Assembly: GCA_965277805.1 (NCBI GenBank)
Contig: OZ255842.1
Coordinates: 2,400,001 to 2,464,000 of the forward strand
Length of the DNA: 64,000 nt
From: Candidatus Lustribacter sp.
Lineage (GTDB): Bacteria > Vulcanimicrobiota > Vulcanimicrobiia > Vulcanimicrobiales > Vulcanimicrobiaceae
Direction: 5' to 3'
The notes under the pieces were generated by a model. That model had not been told where the DNA came from and did no database searches. It saw only the letters and a program-made list of their open reading frames with translations. Position numbers and translations under genes: made by a program. Position 1 is the first letter of the stretch; each line of letters starts with the position of its first letter. This document shows, in pieces, positions 54,960 to 64,000 of this stretch.

Positions 54960-56201
54960 CTACGCTAGTACGGTGCCGCGGACTTCGCCGAAGTCGACGC
55001 GGTGCGGTCCGGTTCCGGCGACCGCGTGCAAGATCACGGTGTCGCCGTTCTCGAGGAATGCGCGCGTTTCGCCGGACGGTAACGAGACCGGGTTTGCGCC
55101 GCGCCAGCTCAACTCGAGAAAACTGCCGTAGGTGCCGGGCTCGCTGCCGGAAACGGTACCGGTACCGAACAGATCGCCGGCACGGACGCGCGAGCCGTTC
55201 GAGGTCATGTGCGCGAGTTGCTGGGCGACGTTCCAGTACATCTCGCGGAAGTTCGTATGGGAGATGACAGCGGGCGCGATGTTTTGCGCGCGCATCCGCT
55301 CGGTTTGCAGCAAAACCTCGAGCGCGATGTCGTAGGCGTAGTTCTCGCTTACGCGCAGATACGGGAGCGGCGCGGGGTCGAGGACGCGATTGGGGACGCG
55401 GAACGGTTCGAGCGCGTCGAGCGAGACGAGCCAGGGCGAAATCGACGTTGCGAATGACTTGCCGAGGAATGGGCCCAGCGGCACGTATTCCCACGCTTGA
55501 ATGTCGCGCGCGCTCCAGTCGTTGAGCACTACGTAGCCGTAAACGTGATCGCGCACGGCGTCAGCGGGAATCGATTCACCGAGCTTATTGCCGGGGCCGG
55601 TAATCCACGCCATCTCCAATTCGATATCGAGCATCTGCGTCGGGCCGAACATCGGTGCCGGCGCGTCGGGCGCTTTGCGTTGCCCGTGCGGACGGCGGAT
55701 CGGCGTATCGCTTACGACGACGGAACTTGCGCGGCCGTGATAGCCGATCGGGACGTAGCGGTAATTCGGCTGGAGCGGTTCGGTGCCCGGACGTAGGATT
55801 TTTCCCGCGTTCGTGGCGTGCTCGATGCCGGAGAAAAAGTCGACGTAATCTTGCACTTCGATGGGGAGCAACATCGTCGCCGCGCTGCGCGGCACAAGTG
55901 CGCGCATTACGGCTTCTCGTTCGTCCGACGTCGCGGCTTCGCCGAAGAGACGCTGCAGCGTCGCACGCAGCGAACGCCACGCACCGGGACCGTGCGCGAG
56001 AAATGCATTCAGGGTGCGTGCATCAAGCAGCGTTTCGTCATCGAGTAGGCGCTCGCGGATCAACGTCGACAGGTCGACGATCGATGGTCCGATCGCGACG
56101 CCCGGACGCGGAGCGTCGTCCGTGGTAAAGATACCAAGCGGCAGGTTCTCAATACCGAAGCCGCTGCCGTCCGCACCGTTAATCCAAGCTGACATCGCCA
56201 T
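54960..56201 (-). CDS. fahA: Fumarylacetoacetase
   Basis: NLPLGIF, DYVDFF...HA.NAG, YHGRASSVVVS, LDIELE, NDWSARDIQAWEYVPLGPF. Confidence 0.96.
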   Translation of the reverse strand: MAMSAWINGADGSGFGIENLPLGIFTTDDAPRPGVAIGPSIVDLSTLIRERLLDDETLLDARTLNAFLAHGPGAWRSLRATLQRLFGEAATSDEREAVMRALVPRSAATMLLPIEVQDYVDFFSGIEHATNAGKILRPGTEPLQPNYRYVPIGYHGRASSVVVSDTPIRRPHGQRKAPDAPAPMFGPTQMLDIELEMAWITGPGNKLGESIPADAVRDHVYGYVVLNDWSARDIQAWEYVPLGPFLGKSFATSISPWLVSLDALEPFRVPNRVLDPAPLPYLRVSENYAYDIALEVLLQTERMRAQNIAPAVISHTNFREMYWNVAQQLAHMTSNGSRVRAGDLFGTGTVSGSEPGTYGSFLELSWRGANPVSLPSGETRAFLENGDTVILHAVAGTGPHRVDFGEVRGTVLA

Positions 56202-56225
56202 CGCGAATCGCCACCTCTAGGAATG

Positions 56226-56253
56226 AAAAGACCCCTCGCTTCCGAGGGATCTT
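56226..56253 (-). terminator. Rho-independent terminator after tRNA-Thr
   Basis: AAGATCCCTCG-GAAG-CGAGGGGTCTT-TT. Confidence 0.7.
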
Positions 56254-56265
56254 CGTCAAGTGATC

Positions 56266-56340
56266 TGGAGCTGGCGGTCGGGATTGAACCGACGCTCTCG
56301 TCCTTACCAAGGACGTGCTTTACCACTAAGCTACGCCAGC
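56266..56340 (-). tRNA. tRNA-Thr(GGT)
   Basis: GCTGGCG...CGTCC-TTGGTAA-GGACG...GGTTCAATC...CGCCAGCTCCA; intact, no intron. Confidence 0.97.
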
Positions 56341-56822
56341 TCGTACTCGGCCGCCCACCGAATCTTTCGAGCCTGCCGGTTAAGGCACGGGGCCACGCGC
56401 AAATGCCCCTTAGTCGCGACCAGTTCGGACTCAGGGACGAGGTAAACCTTCCCATTGTCCGGGCAGAAGACGGCGAGATATTCGACTTGACCGAAATACG
56501 GCCGACTCGCGGTCGGTCCGGATCGGCGATGCTGATGGGAGCTACTGCATATAAAATCGATCACTCCGCCTCGCATGCGCCCCGTCTTCACCTGAATACG
56601 CAAGAGTTGAAGCCCGTCATCAGCGATCACATCATATCGATGATTTTCACCGAACGGTATCGACACAAGATAGCCAGCTCGAATGAGTGCCGAAATCACC
56701 ATCACTTCTGACAGATCACCGATCGCCTTCGTGTTTCGCTTTGGTTTCTCAGCACTTGGACCCGCCGCAATTGCGACTAGATTTTCGCCATCTTCCGGCG
56801 GGAACAAATACGAAACGCTCAT
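56331..56822 (-). CDS. Group I intron-associated-type PD-(D/E)XK endonuclease (I-Ssp6803I-like), free-standing
   Basis: TKAIGDLSE, PFGENHRYDVI and RIQVKTG match the I-Ssp6803I-type pattern as I recall it; stop codon lies within tRNA-Thr. Confidence 0.88.
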   Translation of the reverse strand: MSVSYLFPPEDGENLVAIAAGPSAEKPKRNTKAIGDLSEVMVISALIRAGYLVSIPFGENHRYDVIADDGLQLLRIQVKTGRMRGGVIDFICSSSHQHRRSGPTASRPYFGQVEYLAVFCPDNGKVYLVPESELVATKGHLRVAPCLNRQARKIRWAAEYELA

Positions 56823-56963
56823 TGCAAATATTCTCGCAAATTGCTGTGCCTACTGGTTGGCACTCACGCGGTGCAATAGCGCTTTTCGCGCTTAAAGGAG
56901 TCCGACGTACCGACCGACTAGACCCCACTAACGGAAGAAACCACTACCGGAGACGGGGTTCGC

Positions 56964-58916
56964 ATGGCAAAGAAAGATTCGGGCGGCGTTGACAGACGCG
57001 CGTTTTTAGGCGGAATCGGTGCTGCGGGAGCCGCCGCAGCGGCGGTGGCGGGAGTAAAACCCACACCGGCCGAGGCCAAACCCACGGCCCTGCCGCCCGT
57101 CTCCCAGTCGTATGCGACGACGATCGCGCAACTGGAGCAGGCGCCCCCGATCGATCACGGCCCCGGCGCCGATGCGCAGCACATCACGAATCCCGGCTCG
57201 GACTACATGGTCGACGTCTTGATGGCGCTCGGCTACAAGTACGTCGCCGCAACGCCCGGCACCACGTTCCGCGGACTCCAAGAATCGGTCATCAATTACG
57301 CCCAAGGCAAGATGGAGTGGCTCTCGTGCGCGCACGAAGAGATCTCCGGATCGATGGCCCACGGCTACGCCAAAGCGGCCGGTAAGCCCATGATCATCAT
57401 GGTGCACAACACCGTCGGCCTGCAGCACGCGTCGATGGCGATGTACAACTGCTGGGCCGACCGCGTGCCGATGCTGGTAATGCTCGGGAACTACGCCGAC
57501 GGCGCGCTGCGCTCGAGCGCCGCCGACTGGGATCACGCCATGCTCGACAACGCCGCGATGGTCCGCGGCTACATCAAGTACGACGAGCAGCCGGGATCGC
57601 TGCAGCACTACAAAGAGTCGATGCTGCGCGGACACGGCTTGATGATGACCGCACCGAGCGGCCCGATCGTCATGGTCTGCGATCAGACGCTGCAAGAAGA
57701 CACCGCGTCGCGCAAGCCGCAGCCGGCGATGCCGGCCTACGTTGCGGCAACGCAGCCGGCGCCCGATCCGGGCGCGATCAAACAGATTGCCCAGATGCTG
57801 GTTACGGCGAAGAATCCCGTCATCGTCGCCGATCGCGCGACGCGCTCGCAAGCCGACGTCCAGAATCTCGTCAAACTCGCCGAGGCGCTGCAAGTTCCGG
57901 TGATCGACAAGCTGGGCCGGATGAACTTCCCGACCACGCACTACCTCAACGGCGCGGGCGGCCTGACCGCCGAAGCCGACTTGATCCTCGCACTCGATCC
58001 CGGCGACTTGTCGAGTTACGTCGAGCGCCTGCCCGAGTCGATCGCGCGCAGCACGATTCGCACCGCGCGCCCGGATTGCAAAGTCATCTCGATCGACTCC
58101 GAATTGCTGGCCGACGCCGGAAACTTTCAGGATAAGCAGCGCTTCTATCAGGCCGACCTTCCGGTCGCCGCCGACTCCGCGACGACGTTGCCGTTCCTCA
58201 TCGAAGCGGTGAACAGCGCGATGTCGACCGCGCGCCGCAACGAGAACCCGCAACGCGAAGCGCGTCAGCGCGAAGCCTACTACATCAAGCGTCAGGCCGA
58301 CGCGGCCTACGCCGCGGTCGCCTGGGATTCGCAGCCGATCAGCGTCGCGCGCATGTGCATGGAGATCTGGAATCAGATCAAGGGCGACCCGTGGTCGGTC
58401 GTCTCGTCGACGGGCTTCCAGAGTAACTGGCCGGCGCGCCTGTGGGACTTCACCGATTACAGCCAATACCACGGCGGCTCGGGCGCCGCGGGCATCGGGT
58501 ACATCGGCGGCGCCGCGATCGGCTGCGCGCTCGCACATAAAGACAACGGCGGGGCCGTGTGCGTCAGCTTCCAAGGCGACGGCGACTTCATGATGGGCCC
58601 CGGCGCGATGTGGACCGCTGCGCATCACCGCATTCCGCTCTTGATGGTGATCCACAACAATCGCGCTTGGTACCAAGAAACGATGTCGGTCCAAATTCTC
58701 GCATCGCGGCGCGACCGTCATCCCGATCGCGGGCGCATCGGCACCGAGATCGTCGATCCGAACATCAACTACGCCAAGGTCGCGGAAGGCTTCGGCGTTT
58801 ACGCCGAGCCGCAGATCACGCATCCGGACCAGCTTGCACCGGCGATCGCACGGGCGCTCAAAGTGGTCAAGAGCGGTCATCCTGCGTTGCTCGACATCGT
58901 GTCGCAAGGGAGATGA
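56964..58916 (+). CDS. ThDP-binding enzyme with twin-arginine signal peptide
   Basis: VDRRAFLGGIGAAGAAAAAVAG...AEA; CAHEE catalytic Glu; QGDGDFM...NN ThDP motif. Confidence 0.92.
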   Translation: MAKKDSGGVDRRAFLGGIGAAGAAAAAVAGVKPTPAEAKPTALPPVSQSYATTIAQLEQAPPIDHGPGADAQHITNPGSDYMVDVLMALGYKYVAATPGTTFRGLQESVINYAQGKMEWLSCAHEEISGSMAHGYAKAAGKPMIIMVHNTVGLQHASMAMYNCWADRVPMLVMLGNYADGALRSSAADWDHAMLDNAAMVRGYIKYDEQPGSLQHYKESMLRGHGLMMTAPSGPIVMVCDQTLQEDTASRKPQPAMPAYVAATQPAPDPGAIKQIAQMLVTAKNPVIVADRATRSQADVQNLVKLAEALQVPVIDKLGRMNFPTTHYLNGAGGLTAEADLILALDPGDLSSYVERLPESIARSTIRTARPDCKVISIDSELLADAGNFQDKQRFYQADLPVAADSATTLPFLIEAVNSAMSTARRNENPQREARQREAYYIKRQADAAYAAVAWDSQPISVARMCMEIWNQIKGDPWSVVSSTGFQSNWPARLWDFTDYSQYHGGSGAAGIGYIGGAAIGCALAHKDNGGAVCVSFQGDGDFMMGPGAMWTAAHHRIPLLMVIHNNRAWYQETMSVQILASRRDRHPDRGRIGTEIVDPNINYAKVAEGFGVYAEPQITHPDQLAPAIARALKVVKSGHPALLDIVSQGR

Positions 58917-59554
58917 GCATGTTGCGCTTCAAAACGCTCGCAATCGCCTCGTTCGTCGCCGCCGCGCTCGCCGGGGCGGGCGTGCTCTCGGCCCAGACGA
59001 CCGCCCCTGCCGGCGACGCCAAACACGGCTATCAGCTCTTCCAAGTGAACGGCTGTTATGAATGCCACAACACGCTCGGTCAAGGCACCGGCAGCCGCGC
59101 TCCCGGCGCGGGTCCGGGACCGAACCTCGCGCCCGGACCGATTCCGTACGCCGCGTTCGTGCGCCAAGTGCGCAACCCGCGTCAATCGATGCCGCCCTAC
59201 GATGCGAAACTGGTCAGCGATCAGGACCTGGCCGACATGTACGCCTTCCTGGCGTCGCAGCCGCCGGCGAAAGATCCGCACACCATCGCGGTGCTGAACA
59301 ACGTCACGGCCGGAACGGCAACGAGCACCCCGCACGGCGCCGTCCTCTACGCCGCCAACTGCGCAACCTGTCACGGCGCGAGCGGACAAGGCGGCGTGGG
59401 CCCGGCACTGCGCAACGAAAGCTCAAAGAAAGATGCAGCCGCGGTGGCAGCGTTCGTCCGCAACCCGTCCGGCATCATGCCCAAGCTCAGTCCCGGCATG
59501 CTCAGCGCCAGCGACGTTACCGCCGTATCAGCGTACGTCGAAACGCTGCACTAG
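58913..59554 (+). CDS. Diheme c-type cytochrome
   Basis: Sec signal peptide; CYECH and CATCH; distal Met candidates in SMPP and IMPK; ATGA overlap with the upstream gene. Confidence 0.92.
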   Translation: MSMLRFKTLAIASFVAAALAGAGVLSAQTTAPAGDAKHGYQLFQVNGCYECHNTLGQGTGSRAPGAGPGPNLAPGPIPYAAFVRQVRNPRQSMPPYDAKLVSDQDLADMYAFLASQPPAKDPHTIAVLNNVTAGTATSTPHGAVLYAANCATCHGASGQGGVGPALRNESSKKDAAAVAAFVRNPSGIMPKLSPGMLSASDVTAVSAYVETLH

Positions 59555-59566
59555 CGCCGGGTCCGT

Positions 59567-60127
59567 CTATTTCGCGACGGCTGTTTCCGGCTCATGAAGC
59601 GAACGCAGCAGGCCGCTGAGGACTGCTGCCTTCGATTCCTCCGGTGCCGCATGATAGACGGAATATGACGCATCCAGCGTGTGCTTTAGCCATTCGTCCT
59701 TCAGCCGGCGCGAATCATCCGAGACTTCGTTGGCCGTACCCGAGACCGGGCGCAAATAGCCGTCGATCTTTCCGAGATCGAGTAACCGCAAAATCGTGAA
59801 CTCGCAGGACGGCCGCTGGTAGACGTTGCGGCGCGAGTTCAACTCGGTCAATTTACGCCGCTCGCGCAGCAAGAACCCGTAACGTTCGAGGACCGAAATT
59901 GCGCCGAACACGATCGAAAGGCTCGAGAGCCGGAGGTCGTTGCGGATCTGCTTCGTCGTGGGGTGACAGACGTTCGTCTCACATGCCAGCATGGTCAGAT
60001 AAAGATAGATGCTGACTTGGCGCGGATTAAGGACGTGGTACAGAAAACCGCTCATCCACGCCGGCACTTCCGCATAGGGCTGACAATTCTCAAAGCAATT
60101 TTTGGAATCGATTAGCGGGACAGACAA
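59567..60127 (-). CDS. Winged-helix (HTH_36-like) hypothetical protein
   Basis: VSIYLYL...CHPTTKQI...AISVLERYGFL...RNVY pattern; TTG start. Confidence 0.6.
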   Translation of the reverse strand: MSVPLIDSKNCFENCQPYAEVPAWMSGFLYHVLNPRQVSIYLYLTMLACETNVCHPTTKQIRNDLRLSSLSIVFGAISVLERYGFLLRERRKLTELNSRRNVYQRPSCEFTILRLLDLGKIDGYLRPVSGTANEVSDDSRRLKDEWLKHTLDASYSVYHAAPEESKAAVLSGLLRSLHEPETAVAK

Positions 60128-60257
60128 TAGCGAACATTCCCTGACTGTCAGAGTGATTCAGGTCATCCTTTGGCACCTCACTACAATCGCCTTGCTGTAT
60201 GTGCTGCGTGCATAGTACCAAAATGTGTATGATACTGAAAAAGCAGCCATGCGACTG

Positions 60258-61196
60258 CTACCTGAAGAGAAAGTCTGCCGCGCTAAAACGATGATCGATT
60301 AGCGCGTACTTCGCCATTGCGTCGATCAAGGGTTGAATATCGCCCGTGTTGACCGACGTTGCGTTGAAGCTGATCCCCGTTTGCACAATCGACGCCGCTG
60401 AAACACCGCTGAATGTTGAAAGCAAGTCGGCCGTCTCATTCGCGTGCGCGTTGTTATATGCGGCAGCGGTGCCGATGATCTTACCGAAGCGTAAGACGAG
60501 GTCGCGGTTTTTACTCGCGTACGCACCGGTCGAGAACCAGGCGGTCTCCAAGAAACGCGGCGCGATCGCGGTGAACACATTTGCAAGAACTTTCACGGTT
60601 CCGTCGCCGACCGCGTGCGCGACGAACGGCGGCACGAGCGCTGCGGCAGCAACGCGGCCCTGCGCCACCGCCGCGGCGGCAGCACTCGACGGGATTTCGG
60701 TGAACGAGAGCGTGCGCGAGTCGCCGCCGTGCGTATCCACCCACGCCTTCACCGCCAGCGTATTCTGATCGCCGAGCGACGGAACGGAGATGATCTTCCC
60801 GTTGAGATCCTTGCCGTCCTTAATGGTTGCGCTCGGCAAGATGACGAGCATTACGTCGCCGCTGTCATGCGGCCCGAAGACCGCGCCGCCGGCGTGGATC
60901 TTGATGTCAACGTTGTGCGCGCGAGCCGCAATGAGGGAGCCCATGCTGGACTTACCGATATCGACTGCGCCGCCCACGACGGCAGCGATCGTCGCCGCGC
61001 CGCTATTGGCGCGCTCGTACGTCGTCTCGAACCCGGCGGCGCGAAAAAGACCGGCCTTTTGCGCGTAGAGTAACGGCGCTGCGTCGTCGGCACCGGTACC
61101 CGAACAGTGAACGGTCAGCGGCGCGGGCGTCTGGGCGAACGCCGGAGCGGAGGTCACGGCAGCGAGCCCGGCGGCGATAAAGTTCGTGCGTCTCAT
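60258..61196 (-). CDS. SsuA/NMT1-like substrate-binding protein with Tat-like signal
   Basis: MRRTNFIAAG, YAQKAGLF, WVDTHGGDS..FTEIP. Confidence 0.88.
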   Translation of the reverse strand: MRRTNFIAAGLAAVTSAPAFAQTPAPLTVHCSGTGADDAAPLLYAQKAGLFRAAGFETTYERANSGAATIAAVVGGAVDIGKSSMGSLIAARAHNVDIKIHAGGAVFGPHDSGDVMLVILPSATIKDGKDLNGKIISVPSLGDQNTLAVKAWVDTHGGDSRTLSFTEIPSSAAAAAVAQGRVAAAALVPPFVAHAVGDGTVKVLANVFTAIAPRFLETAWFSTGAYASKNRDLVLRFGKIIGTAAAYNNAHANETADLLSTFSGVSAASIVQTGISFNATSVNTGDIQPLIDAMAKYALIDHRFSAADFLFR

Positions 61197-61232
61197 CAGT
61201 GCTGATATCCGCCGTCGGACCCGGGACTCTTG

Positions 61233-62285
61233 CTACGACACGGGTCCACTCGGCGGTTGCGGCGTGGGCGTCGGTGAGGGCTTGGGCGTTGGAACCGGTG
61301 TCGGTTTCGGCGTAGGCGCGAGCGTCGGGACCGGGGTCGGCGCGGGCGCCGATGTCGGTGCGATCGACGGCGCAGCGGTAGGTGCCGGCGTTTTGCCGCC
61401 GCCGCCGGTCGGCGTCGGTACGGGCGTCGGGGCCGCGCTCGGCGCGCTTGTCGGTACGGTCGAAGGCGACGGCGTCGGTGCTTTGCCGGTTGCGATGGCA
61501 GACGGCGTCGGTGCGGGCGTCGGAACGAACGGCGGTTGCGAGGGCACGGGCACGGGCGCGCCGGCGCCGCTATTGCAATTTGCGGTGAACGACAGCGGCG
61601 AGCGATCGAGGGCGGCGAGCGGTTGGGTCGCGCCCGCAGCCGAGCCGTCCGTCGCCGGTTCGAGCGATGCGGTAACGACGGCACTGAGCTGCGGCGAACA
61701 ATGCAAGAGCGATGAAAGGTCGGGCGAGCGGTAAAACGGCATCGATCGGCTGAGCGTGTGGGTGCCTAACGCGGCCGCGCCGGGCAGCACGCCCGAGAAG
61801 TTGGCGCTGACTTCGGCCGTTACGACCGGGGCTTGCGTCAACAAAAGATATTCGCGCGTGTAACCGTTTGTGAGATCGACGCGCACGGGTGTCGTGCATG
61901 CAACCGTCACGCTCGTTGGTAAGAAAAACGCGCCGAATTCCGCCGGTGTCGACGCGGTACCCGGCACCGTAGCGATCGAGCCCCCTTTGAGGAAGCCGTT
62001 GTTCGGAATTGCGCACGGCTGCGTCGGTACGTTGCTCATACCGTTGAGATTATTATAAAGCGTGTACAGACTATAATCGAGATACGGGTTCTGCTGCTGT
62101 TGCAGAACGCCCGCGTATCGCACGACCTCCTCGCTGCGCTCGGTGACGACGCCCACGCGGATCCCCCACACGACCGCGTACAGCGCGCCGAGGAGCACGG
62201 GCAGGACGAGAGCGGTTTCCAGCAAGGCCGCGCCGCGTTGGCGGTGGTATCGCGATTTCACGTTAGCTGCATCCCAATTCGGCAT
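61233..62285 (-). CDS. TadE-family pseudopilin with Pro/Thr/Ala-rich C-terminal tail
   Basis: QRGAALLETALVLPVL prepilin cleavage motif (G|xxxxE); PTP repeats in the tail. Confidence 0.85.
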   Translation of the reverse strand: MPNWDAANVKSRYHRQRGAALLETALVLPVLLGALYAVVWGIRVGVVTERSEEVVRYAGVLQQQQNPYLDYSLYTLYNNLNGMSNVPTQPCAIPNNGFLKGGSIATVPGTASTPAEFGAFFLPTSVTVACTTPVRVDLTNGYTREYLLLTQAPVVTAEVSANFSGVLPGAAALGTHTLSRSMPFYRSPDLSSLLHCSPQLSAVVTASLEPATDGSAAGATQPLAALDRSPLSFTANCNSGAGAPVPVPSQPPFVPTPAPTPSAIATGKAPTPSPSTVPTSAPSAAPTPVPTPTGGGGKTPAPTAAPSIAPTSAPAPTPVPTLAPTPKPTPVPTPKPSPTPTPQPPSGPVS

Positions 62286-63315
62286 CGCTCTGCGGCCCGG
62301 TCCAGGGGTGAATCGGGACGGAATTCCACCAGCCTAATTGCGCGCTGAACTCGTCGGTGAACAAGCCGGCGCGATAGAAATTCAACGTGGCATTCGCCGC
62401 GGTTGCGTTACCGCCGAAGCTGAGGTTGTACCAGTCGTAATTGTCGGGATGCACCACGCCGTTGACGTTGGTCTCCGGCGGCTGGAACGGCAAACCGTTG
62501 CTGAACGGGTTGACGATCACGCCGGGCTGCAGCCAATCTTCTTCCATCATGACCGCGGTCGCGGCACCGCGCCCGATCGCATGATACGGCTTGGGCTGAT
62601 AACCGAAAAATCCCGGAATGACGGGCGCAACCGTGGTGCACACATCGACTTCAACCTTGAGCGGTGCGAAAAGCGACGGATTCACGCCCGATGGACCCGT
62701 GAGGCGCCCGAGCGAGGGCTTGAGGATGCCGAGGGCGTCCATCTCAACGGCTTGCGTATCGTCGCGCGTGCCGACGGTCACCTTATAGTGAAAGTTGCAA
62801 TCGCCGCCGGCAGCTCCGTTGCAATCGCTGCCGATCTGTCCGATCAGGGCCTGCGAGTCGGCGCTCAGGTTCGTGTAGTTGAGTGATGCGGTGATCCGGT
62901 TGAGCGTTGTGACGTCTTGCGTATAGCGAGCGACGGACTTGAAATAGTCATCGCGCAAGCCTGCATACACGGCGTCGCAGGCCGGAACATCCGTACCGGG
63001 TGCGGGTGCCGGATTGGGGGCGCAGCCGCCGGCGTTGTATTCGGCCAGCACGATGCCTTGCAGCAAGCGCCGCAGACGGTACTCCTCGACCGCCGACGCG
63101 TAGAGCACGGCGGTCATCTGGTTGAAATCTTCGGTCTGCAGTGAAAGCACGGCTTGAGCGGCCGAATCGGCTGCGTTTTGCGCCCGCAGCTGCCACCGGA
63201 TTCCGTTGCCGAAATCGAGGGCGAAATAGGCAAAGATCAGCATAACGATGATGCCGAACACCGATAGCGGTAACGCTTGGCCGCGCTGCGCGTGCTGGTT
63301 GTCACGGTCCGACAT
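62263..63315 (-). CDS. Tad-domain (TadG-like) pilus assembly protein
   Basis: QRGQALP, TM, DFG...RAQNAADSAA. Confidence 0.85.
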   Translation of the reverse strand: MSDRDNQHAQRGQALPLSVFGIIVMLIFAYFALDFGNGIRWQLRAQNAADSAAQAVLSLQTEDFNQMTAVLYASAVEEYRLRRLLQGIVLAEYNAGGCAPNPAPAPGTDVPACDAVYAGLRDDYFKSVARYTQDVTTLNRITASLNYTNLSADSQALIGQIGSDCNGAAGGDCNFHYKVTVGTRDDTQAVEMDALGILKPSLGRLTGPSGVNPSLFAPLKVEVDVCTTVAPVIPGFFGYQPKPYHAIGRGAATAVMMEEDWLQPGVIVNPFSNGLPFQPPETNVNGVVHPDNYDWYNLSFGGNATAANATLNFYRAGLFTDEFSAQLGWWNSVPIHPWTGPQSDAELGCS

Positions 63316-64000
63316 TGCAACTCGTATCCGGGTGCAGAGGGTATTGCCCGATCGCGGTATAGTTGTTGGGATAGCCGCCGGCTTGCCGCGAATCCCAGGT
63401 GTTGTAGATGCAGTCGAGTACGCCCTGATTCCATCGTAACGCGCCGGCCGCGTACAACGCCTGGGCAGTCGGCGCCGCCGCTAAGGCCAGCGAAATCTCG
63501 GCGTACGTGTTCTGATGCCCGAGCGCCGCCGTAAAGACGCCGTTGGAGACCGCTCCGTTGAATGCACGGCCCCAGTTGTCGACGTCGAGATACTCGGCGA
63601 GTCCGAGTGCGTCGTAGTCTTGTTCGTTCGTTGGGCACGCCGACCAGGAGGACGTATCCTCGCAGAACGTCAGGTAATGGAAGCCGACGAAATACGGCGG
63701 GGTATTCTCGCCTTGACTAAAGTAGTCGGCCCGCTCGTTGAAGGCGTTGAGCGAGTTGAAGGCATTGCCTTGAATGTCGCCGTGTGCACCGATCTCCTGA
63801 TAGGCGGGATCGATCGTGCTGCCGCTCAAGCTGAAGAGCGAGCCGGTGGCTCCGAGGACGATGCCGGGTATGTTGTTGCGCACAACCGTGCTGACGATCT
63901 GCACGGGCAACAGCATCGAAACGCCGCCGTGCCGGCCTTGCGTATTGGTGAGGTCGTAGTTCACGACTTCGCTCGTCGCCAGGGGCTTGCCGTTGGCCAA
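63302..64000 (-). CDS. C-terminal part of a probable Tad-cluster protein (start outside the window)
   Basis: Open frame to the window edge, overlaps the start of the Tad gene; secreted-protein-like composition with several Cys. Confidence 0.6.
   Translation of the reverse strand: MANGKPLATSEVVNYDLTNTQGRHGGVSMLLPVQIVSTVVRNNIPGIVLGATGSLFSLSGSTIDPAYQEIGAHGDIQGNAFNSLNAFNERADYFSQGENTPPYFVGFHYLTFCEDTSSWSACPTNEQDYDALGLAEYLDVDNWGRAFNGAVSNGVFTAALGHQNTYAEISLALAAAPTAQALYAAGALRWNQGVLDCIYNTWDSRQAGGYPNNYTAIGQYPLHPDTSCNVGP

Follow-up and report, generated by a model that had tools for sequence, protein, structure and literature searches.

A free-standing PD-(D/E)XK homing-type nuclease gene that ends inside tRNA-Thr(GGT) in Candidatus Lustribacter

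The window analysed here is a stretch of 64,000 nt from the genome of Candidatus Lustribacter sp. (G000); coordinates are positions within it unless a contig is named, and the strand read is the minus strand. It holds the gene for a PD-(D/E)XK nuclease that runs into the 5' end of a tRNA-Thr(GGT) gene (Table 1). The open reading frame (ORF) closes with ...GAG CTG GCG TAG and the tRNA opens with GCTGGCGTAG, so that the final 10 nt of the ORF are nucleotides 1-10 of the tRNA and the stop codon is U8-A9-G10. The original prediction had placed the stop codon of a free-standing, intron-less nuclease gene inside this tRNA, and both the tRNA located by ARAGORN and the ORF list agree with it. The tRNA scores 72 bits with the Rfam tRNA model, is 75 nt long, intron-free and uninterrupted (ARAGORN, Rfam), and is the sole Rfam match at E ≤ 1 in positions 56100-57000. 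The nuclease gene lies 5' of the tRNA and is not intron-encoded. Its GC content is 0.50-0.54 against 0.62-0.67 on either flank, some 10 points lower, and it is present in one copy in the one-contig, 5.53-Mb genome, whose 47 tRNA genes include one for Thr(GGT) by whole-genome count.

Table 1. Features of the nuclease and tRNA-Thr locus, as positions in the window
Feature	Position	Strand	Remarks
Conserved inverted repeat TGCC-N8-GGCA (here TGCCAACCAGTAGGCA)	56847..56862	-	24 nt 5' of the ATG; pattern match and conservation
-10-like hexamer GAGAAT	56830..56835	-	7 nt 5' of the ATG; conservation anchored on the palindrome
Gene for a 163-residue PD-(D/E)XK nuclease, PF11645 / I-Ssp6803I family	56331..56822	-	ORF list and Pfam; stop codon TAG at 56333-56331
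Overlap of ORF and tRNA, 10 nt	56331..56340	-	tRNA nt 1-10 (GCTGGCGTAG) supply the third base of a Glu codon, a Leu and an Ala codon, and the stop
tRNA-Thr(GGT), U13-A22-A46 allele	56266..56340	-	ARAGORN; sole Thr(GGT) gene of the genome
Hairpin and U-run, likely terminator of the nuclease-tRNA unit	56224..56258	-	folding

The nuclease matches Pfam family PF11645 (PDDEXK_5) with an E-value of 1.9e-31 and 109.3 bits against a cut-off of 26.1, its residues 30-162 spanning positions 2-137 of the 138 in the profile. No other Pfam family exceeds its cut-off in the ORF, and a GIY-YIG domain of the SegB type was not found; NCBIfam gave no match for the protein, and PHROGs gave one family of unknown function and nothing else. 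The best solved-structure match by sequence is 2OST, the structure of I-Ssp6803I (E 1.3e-3, residues 30-147). An AlphaFold model (pLDDT 83.9) returns the four chains of 2OST as its top four Foldseek matches (E 6e-9 to 7e-7, TM 0.54-0.72; for the best, E 6e-9 and TM 0.66-0.72), followed by archaeal Hjc resolvases and restriction enzymes. In an alignment of 88 diverse family members D64 and K79 never vary, and at least 90% of the sequences have Q77; the three residues, which we take to be catalytic, align with YD...QVK of 2OST. By profile match and modelled fold, then, the gene belongs to the PF11645 / I-Ssp6803I family of PD-(D/E)XK homing endonucleases, the relatedness that had been claimed for it. 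The family comprises 3,410 cluster representatives at E ≤ 0.001, and the available text of a superfamily survey describes its distribution as patchy, with signs of horizontal transfer (PMC3424549). Residues 1-29 (window 56735-56822) form a low-confidence N-terminal extension in the model, in which a (P)GVS(F/Y)L motif is conserved in many copies of the direct-overlap clade described below. The C-terminal tails of several distant family members, judged by eye and uncounted, look like translated tRNA sequence.

The overlap between ORF and tRNA recurs across relatives and is beyond chance. The TAG of the tRNA is the stop codon in all nine intact copies of related genomes (L001-L004, L006-L009, L011). 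A scan of species-representative genomes with a 16-sequence alignment found 406 loci encoding relatives, of which the best 80 were kept. A tRNA lies within 100 nt in 72 of these 80, where a random gene would be expected to have one so close about 1% of the time, given 47 tRNA genes in 5.5 Mb, and 61 of the 80 lie directly 5' of tRNA-Thr(GGT). The stop codon falls on nt 8-10 of that tRNA in 47 loci, or in 48 with L073, where the tRNA start given by ARAGORN is one base earlier; nine of these 61 end on a stop codon of their own, 6-61 nt 5' of the tRNA, and four further adjacent loci, besides L073, are frameshifted or read through the tRNA. Eleven of the 80, among them one that lies 22 nt 3' of a tRNA-Asn, are within 100 nt of a tRNA other than Thr(GGT), two are the first copies of tandem pairs, and six have no tRNA nearby, one of the six being cut by a contig end. 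The C-terminus reads L-[A/P/V/T/S/L] in 114 of the 120 closest database proteins, which is consistent with a stop codon in the tRNA because tRNA nt 2-7 (CTG NYG) followed by TAG encode exactly that; of the remaining six, most are truncated and one reads through the tRNA after a frameshift.

A tree of 78 nuclease copies resolves three groups. In a direct-overlap clade (SH-aLRT 92%) the domain ends ...RWAxxYEL-A* and the acceptor stem of the tRNA starts GCTG; in a tail clade (SH-aLRT 85%) an extension of 56-92 nt separates the end of the domain from the tRNA, and the acceptor stem is GCCG; the third is an Actinomycetota clade (SH-aLRT 99%). Nine loci labelled Actinomycetota (L098, L105, L108, L110, L111, L113, L120, L124, L125) lie 54-90 nt from tRNA-Thr(TGT) and on either strand relative to it, and L115, of the same clade, overlaps tRNA-Thr(TGT) by the identical 10 nt. 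Two loci inside the direct-overlap clade carry labels of other lineages, L060 (Limnocylindrales) and L062 (Actinomycetota); they were not counted as transfer across phyla, since their downstream flanks resemble Vulcanimicrobiota loci and mislabelling is possible. One congeneric copy (L050/L005, genome G002) has no tRNA behind it: at the junction ...AAGTTGGTTAGG... its ORF continues for 42 more codons.

Homologues are found also in viruses. A tblastn search of phage records returned 46 records with homologues, all below 60% identity, and all five of the phage and virus loci examined (L186-L190) lie in or beside tRNA genes. In Pectobacterium phage My1 (L186) the coding sequence overlaps tRNA-Ile by 7 nt, and in Vibrio phage Pylo (L189) it follows tRNA-Asp by 20 nt and abuts tRNA-Pro (0 nt); in Salmonella phage SM5 it starts 23 nt past a tRNA, in the haloarchaeal virus HSTV-4 it starts 2 nt past tRNA-Asn, and in Enterococcus phage EFP01 a tRNA-Arg lies 138 nt downstream. 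In light of these loci, linkage to tRNA genes looks family-wide, and the intron-borne I-Ssp6803I appears as one special case.

Occupied and empty alleles at the site of the gene were compared. Other genera of the family have the arrangement tRNA-Tyr(GTA) / tRNA-Gly(TCC) / nuclease / tRNA-Thr(GGT), and loci of that family were retrieved through the tRNA, independently of the nuclease. In 17 loci the spacer between tRNA-Gly and tRNA-Thr is empty, with a length of 3-22 nt in all but one, where it is 58 nt (four of these 17, L017, L036, L038 and L042, being from genomes flagged unpublished). Nuclease-occupied spacers measure 520, 537 and 613 nt, and in a further spacer, 177 nt long, a remnant of the nuclease can still be recognised (KRNTKGVG...VSIPF). 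Occupied and empty alleles occur side by side within each of three genera, at 537 versus 7, 520 versus 10 and 560 versus 12 nt, so that the empty sites sought among relatives do exist. The insert takes the place of the short spacer, with no duplication visible. The nuclease site is the spacer just 5' of tRNA-Thr(GGU), ancestrally part of a tRNA-Tyr / tRNA-Gly(UCC) / tRNA-Thr(GGU) operon. Occupancy is sporadic: in a first sample of relatives, in which many assemblies are incomplete, 13 of the family's 36 genomes have the nuclease, against none of five in a second family and none of 19 in a third, and it is present in six of the 29 other sampled genera of the window's family (f1).

The old tRNA operon seems to be an insertion hot spot. 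In G000 (C1:2456823-2490824, of which 56823-64000 is in the window) tRNA-Gly(TCC) is about 32.6 kb from the nuclease and tRNA-Thr unit, with a gene for a thiamine diphosphate (ThDP) enzyme next to the nuclease, and a 1.49-kb segment with a gene for an NMT1-like substrate-binding protein lies between tRNA-Tyr and tRNA-Gly. In another genome (G013, L043) the spacer between tRNA-Gly and tRNA-Thr is 656 nt long and contains another kind of insert: an ORF that is dissimilar to the nuclease and whose N-terminus resembles a signal peptide. Two small genes on the opposite strand, with apparent signal peptides and one of them ending ...NIVGGPLLNKMIDCDMMPGGM, recur in one genus (L122, L131, L135-L137) between tRNA-Gly and the nuclease or its remnant. 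Inspection of 11 loci showed no conserved partner gene in the interval from tRNA-Gly to the nuclease.

The gene decays where it resides. It is frameshifted in G007 and G018 and reduced to remnants in G005, G020 and G030; in two later samples, three of nine and 11 of 19 loci with a nuclease match (14 of 28) are broken into frames or pieces; and in two of the seven congeners the coding sequence is broken or only a remnant is left while the tRNA is intact. It also stacks. At L051 (2465-4047) a PDDEXK_5 nuclease, an HNH-type ORF (PF01844, 21.9 bits), a second PDDEXK_5 nuclease and tRNA-Thr follow one another, the first nuclease still closing with ...ELA* on an 11-nt piece of tRNA, nt 1-11, and at L074 two PDDEXK_5 copies stand in tandem. 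From these stacks, new arrivals seem to insert beside the tRNA and to displace older copies. At L131 and L134-L137 a short element that resembles the nuclease tail (GTAGGGGC...GGCGGAGTA, read VG...GV) lies about 30-60 nt 5' of tRNA-Thr where the nuclease domain has been lost; this element could be left over from the nuclease or could serve the tRNA as a functional leader.

Within the genus the gene order fumarylacetoacetate hydrolase-type gene (FAH) / tRNA / nuclease / ThDP enzyme is conserved, and congeners share 74-95% identity in the flanking proteins and 56-65% in the nuclease, the window's copy not being sister to the other congeneric copies in the tree of 78. At the DNA level, identity between G000 and G003 is 90-100% until some 30-90 nt inside the nuclease gene, and 56-70% across the remainder of the gene. 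The two tRNAs, with differences at 12 of 75 positions, are 77-80% identical; the figure is 67-73% in the spacer behind the tRNA and 83-92% in the next gene. A divergent, sharply bounded tract of about 600 bp that includes the tRNA is the trace expected of homing with co-conversion, and the comparison suggests such an event; a local increase in rate is the alternative. The features by which a homing gene is recognised were found together at this site: occupied and empty alleles among close relatives, a cycle of invasion, decay and loss, and a probable co-conversion tract with discordant flanks. In view of the pseudogenes and the probable allele-replacement tract, strictly vertical inheritance of the nuclease gene is unlikely.

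The upstream region carries signals of its own. A 16-nt palindrome, TGCC-N8-GGCA with one mismatch allowed, lies upstream of 44 of the 47 copies whose upstream region was extracted, although three of the 44 matches are doubtful (L049, L052, L058) and were omitted from the weight matrix of 41. Its distance from the start codon is fixed, the ATG falling at positions 24-26 after the palindrome end in 31-32 of the 44, and positions 12-17 after the palindrome read T-A-n-n-A-T, a -10-like box (A13 in 41 of 44, T17 in 40 of 44). The ATG follows this box after 6-7 nt, and upstream of it there is no visible Shine-Dalgarno sequence. As an RNA hairpin the palindrome is weak (z -1.95); possible roles for it are those of an operator or of an element in the promoter region. 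This spacing, with the -10 box just before the ATG and the palindrome over the -35 region, predicts the promoter of a leaderless mRNA.

Downstream, the hairpin behind the tRNA has a folding energy of -21.3 kcal/mol (z -4.2; none of 200 shuffles was as stable), and a similar one is present at the same position in congeneric loci and in most direct-overlap loci, in keeping with the terminator that had been proposed there; a simple terminator scan did not list it, probably because the stem runs into the U-run. Between nuclease and tRNA there is neither room nor signal for a separate tRNA promoter. Together the palindrome, the -10 box, the absent Shine-Dalgarno sequence and the hairpin suggest a single leaderless transcript of nuclease and tRNA. 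In the tail clade the palindrome begins within a few nucleotides of the 3' end of tRNA-Gly, so that read-through from the tRNA operon is also likely there. In G000, by contrast, tRNA-Gly(TCC) is far off and the upstream neighbour of the nuclease is divergent (window ORF list), which leaves the promoter region of the element as the only visible source of transcription for the lone tRNA-Thr(GGT); in the window's genus the element's promoter probably drives the cell's only tRNA-Thr(GGU) gene.

RNase P cuts at position +1 of a tRNA. On a shared transcript the fragment upstream of such a cut would stop two bases into a sense codon, without a stop codon, since the stop codon of the nuclease lies 3' of the RNase P site. 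G000 has the machinery for processing and rescue: RNase P RNA (256 bits), tmRNA (120 bits; C1:181324-181680, Rfam) and SmpB (185 bits), although the tmRNA mode of ARAGORN found no tmRNA in this genome. Loss of the stop codon to RNase P may limit expression of the nuclease, by way of tmRNA tagging.

The tRNA itself is dimorphic. The 102 distinct tRNA-Thr(GGT) sequences in the fetched loci (L001-L176) fall into two classes with no intermediates, 47 with C13-G22-G46 and 55 with U13-A22-A46, the latter including two with A12-U13/A22-U23; positions 13, 22 and 46 form a base triple of the tRNA core. The swapped (U-A-A) allele occurs in 117 of 401 genomes of a phylum sample (one of the 117 being flagged unpublished) and is confined to one family, 116 of 296 genomes against none of 104 in 20 other families. 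When loci were sampled by allele and the nuclease scored afterwards, a nuclease match was found, across genera, in nine of 20 swapped-allele loci and in one of 30 canonical loci (Fisher p 5e-4, uncorrected for phylogeny), and at least five more swapped-allele loci keep only the tail-like remnant. The three-position swap is polymorphic within genera, in a tRNA-Thr that is single-copy and essential. The D-arm allele was dropped as a clean marker of nuclease presence and is retained as a lead, because the association is not significant within the one genus tested that has both alleles (g52); the link is thus largely one between lineages.

Taken together, these data make it probable that the gene is a free-standing homing gene at the 5' spacer of tRNA-Thr, forming with the tRNA a leaderless unit whose message has a non-stop fate after RNase P. 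The nuclease would cut nuclease-less alleles within or beside the tRNA-Thr gene, and recombinational repair would copy the nuclease gene and flanking DNA, including the tRNA, into the cut chromosome; copies would later decay, to be lost or replaced. The element would supply its own promoter region, giving a leaderless mRNA without a Shine-Dalgarno sequence, and nuclease and tRNA would be transcribed as one unit up to the hairpin behind the tRNA. Translation would terminate on U8-A9-G10 of the unprocessed tRNA, whereas cleavage by RNase P would leave a non-stop fragment whose ribosomes are rescued by tmRNA-SmpB and whose product is tagged for degradation, so that full-length nuclease would come only from precursor not yet processed. 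That the element is selfish is well supported by the comparative evidence; we infer that the protein cuts DNA and at which target, that nuclease and tRNA are co-transcribed, and that the message has a non-stop fate from which the element may benefit. The original prediction of a selfish, tRNA-linked element stood in part, namely as to family, free-standing state and the checks that it named (homologues enriched at tRNA genes, empty sites in relatives, departure from vertical descent); its co-transcription is suggested by the architecture of the locus, and its tRNA-targeted cleavage and off-switch through tmRNA are putative.

Several observations weigh against this account in whole or in part. 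All seven genomes of the genus hold a copy or a remnant at the same site, as long vertical residence would likewise predict. A sigma-70 two-hexamer scan of 55900-57200 found no promoter and no -35 hexamer is recognisable upstream of the nuclease, so that the leaderless promoter is read from conservation only. The upstream palindrome is unlike the tRNA or the empty junctions: the idea that it mimics the cleavage target, for which the autorepression of I-TevI is a precedent, was rejected because, with the matrix of 41 palindromes, neither tRNA-Thr, canonical or variant, nor the 17 empty junctions scored above the mean of the shuffles. Intact nucleases also stand beside canonical tRNA-Thr, and within g52 a nuclease match is found in 12 of 29 swapped-allele loci against seven of 30 canonical ones (p 0.17). 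The remaining points concern the stop codon. A stop inside the tRNA is not required, as is evident from the nine adjacent copies with their own stop and from ten of 31 tail-clade copies that are out of phase with the tRNA TAG. In favour of selection on the arrangement, the other 21 of the 31 are in phase over 56-92 nt, and all but L106 are open to the TAG, with eight spacer lengths; by a binomial test this gives p 1.5e-4 by loci, which are not independent, and a marginal 0.058 by length classes. Substitutions in the tail are spread evenly over codon positions (132/114/141), implying that the tail peptide is under little constraint. Selection on the overlap is further called into question by family members elsewhere, which stop directly after a conserved ...RWAxDYE(L/I) motif, and by the phage copies, which meet their tRNAs at other offsets.

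The stop-codon observations are what commends the strongest alternative, to which we give somewhat less than an even chance: that the gene is selfish as described, and its tRNA-borne stop a by-product of compaction without regulatory role, the element having met the near-universal U8-A9-G10, had its own stop deleted and had its non-stop fragments cleared. The copies with their own stop or out of phase have apparently intact domains, and the lack of codon-position bias in the tail fits as well. Because members elsewhere end after ...RWAxDYE(L/I), and the tRNA of the direct-overlap clade starts exactly there, the overlap is where maximal compaction would put it; the offsets in phages differ (7 nt in My1, 0 nt in Pylo). 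Compaction accounts less well for the tail clade, in which two thirds of the loci hold phase, and all but one an open frame, across unconstrained sequence of eight lengths, and for the retention of the overlap in 29 of 29 direct-clade copies beside the tRNA (the tool offset in L073 being one base off). As between a regulatory and a by-product role for the stop codon, the odds are roughly equal.

That the gene is instead a domesticated nuclease or promoter donor, retained for transcription or processing of tRNA-Thr(GGU) and no longer mobile, is improbable. The distance of the unit from the tRNA operon and the divergent upstream neighbour, from which the tRNA probably depends on the element's promoter region, speak for it, as do the copy or remnant in seven of seven congeners and the conserved synteny from FAH to the ThDP enzyme. 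Dependence on a promoter, however, would conserve the upstream region rather than the ORF, and the coding sequence is broken or a remnant in two of the seven congeners and in many other genomes that keep the tRNA intact; its sporadic occurrence among the other f1 genera, with empty sites in the same genera, the allele-replacement tract and the low GC content also argue for mobility. Very improbable is an anti-phage defence nuclease, or other cellular PD-(D/E)XK enzyme, with only incidental proximity to a tRNA: the available text of a review has a table that places PF11645-type nucleases among candidate defence systems (PMC10952713) and there is a weak PADLOC match (19.8 bits), albeit with a model labelled 'homing endonuclease', but position relative to a tRNA is fixed in 72 of 80 loci and recurs in phages and archaeal viruses, the loci inspected share no conserved partner gene, and the genome has a single copy.

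Returning to the free-standing homing gene, a further extension of that account is conceivable, though we doubt it: the tRNA-borne stop would act as a maturation timer, in which only unprocessed precursor yields untagged enzyme and a gene carried by the strong transcription of an essential tRNA is kept to a trace of expression, and the element would drive evolution of the tRNA by spreading cleavage-resistant or co-converted alleles. The polymorphism of the swapped allele within genera, and its enrichment beside the nuclease across genera, would fit such a spread.

Several known systems invite comparison. I-Ssp6803I, which as a tetramer binds a pseudo-palindromic site in the anticodon arm, shares with the window's protein its Pfam family, the best structure match, an aligned Asp and Q-x-K motif and linkage to a tRNA gene. 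The two are only about 20% identical, and whereas I-Ssp6803I is intron-encoded, in a tRNA-fMet gene, the window's gene is intron-free in the 5' spacer of tRNA-Thr, has promoter-like signals of its own and ends inside the tRNA. In mitochondria, where tRNAs punctuate transcripts, an mRNA that precedes a tRNA gets its 3' end when the tRNA is excised, its coding sequence may extend into the tRNA, and polyadenylation completes the stop codon; here, unlike there, processing would remove a complete stop codon, and would do so in a bacterium with tmRNA. The host of I-Ssp6803I is a group I intron in the tRNA-fMet gene of Synechocystis PCC 6803, according to the available text of PMC1995217. By analogy, the closest functional counterpart is SegB of phage T4, a free-standing GIY-YIG endonuclease in a tRNA cluster that recognises a conserved tRNA motif and whose homing carries neighbouring tRNA genes, as set out in the available text of PMC2330249. 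Both are free-standing nuclease genes among tRNA genes, and the co-transfer of tRNAs by SegB parallels the replacement tract that covers the tRNA here; SegB, however, is a phage-borne GIY-YIG enzyme, whereas the window's protein is a PD-(D/E)XK nuclease of putative cleavage activity in a bacterial core tRNA operon, and an overlap of stop codon and tRNA goes unreported for SegB in the same text (PMC2330249). Cyanobacterial HNH genes are conserved next to long tRNA arrays, co-regulated with them and proposed to spread them, in the available text of PMC8421152; they are of another nuclease family and lie upstream of a large accessory array, whereas the window's gene runs straight into one essential tRNA gene at its 5' end.

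The open-access papers searched describe neither a PD-(D/E)XK nuclease gene that is joined to a bacterial tRNA gene at the 5' end of the latter nor a stop codon donated by a tRNA. New here, then, are the free-standing position of a PD-(D/E)XK homing-type gene within a bacterial core tRNA operon, the entire cycle of invasion and decay as displayed at one site by a population of these genes, and a stop codon supplied by a tRNA. For annotation, pipelines easily trim or discard genes that run into a tRNA.

To our knowledge, homing endonucleases have been thought to require an intron or an intein for harmless entry into highly conserved genes. The element may show another route, in which it settles in the short gap that separates two tRNA genes, only a few bases wide, borrows a stop codon from the tRNA and leaves the separation of the products to tRNA processing. 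If so, the PD-(D/E)XK homing family, known from one intron-encoded enzyme, would become a large tRNA-linked family in several bacterial phyla, phages and archaeal viruses, with many natural nuclease variants directed at conserved tRNA sequence. The locus would also be a natural case in which cleavage by RNase P makes a non-stop message, and would offer a testable system in which an essential tRNA gene, present in one copy, is in conflict with a selfish gene.

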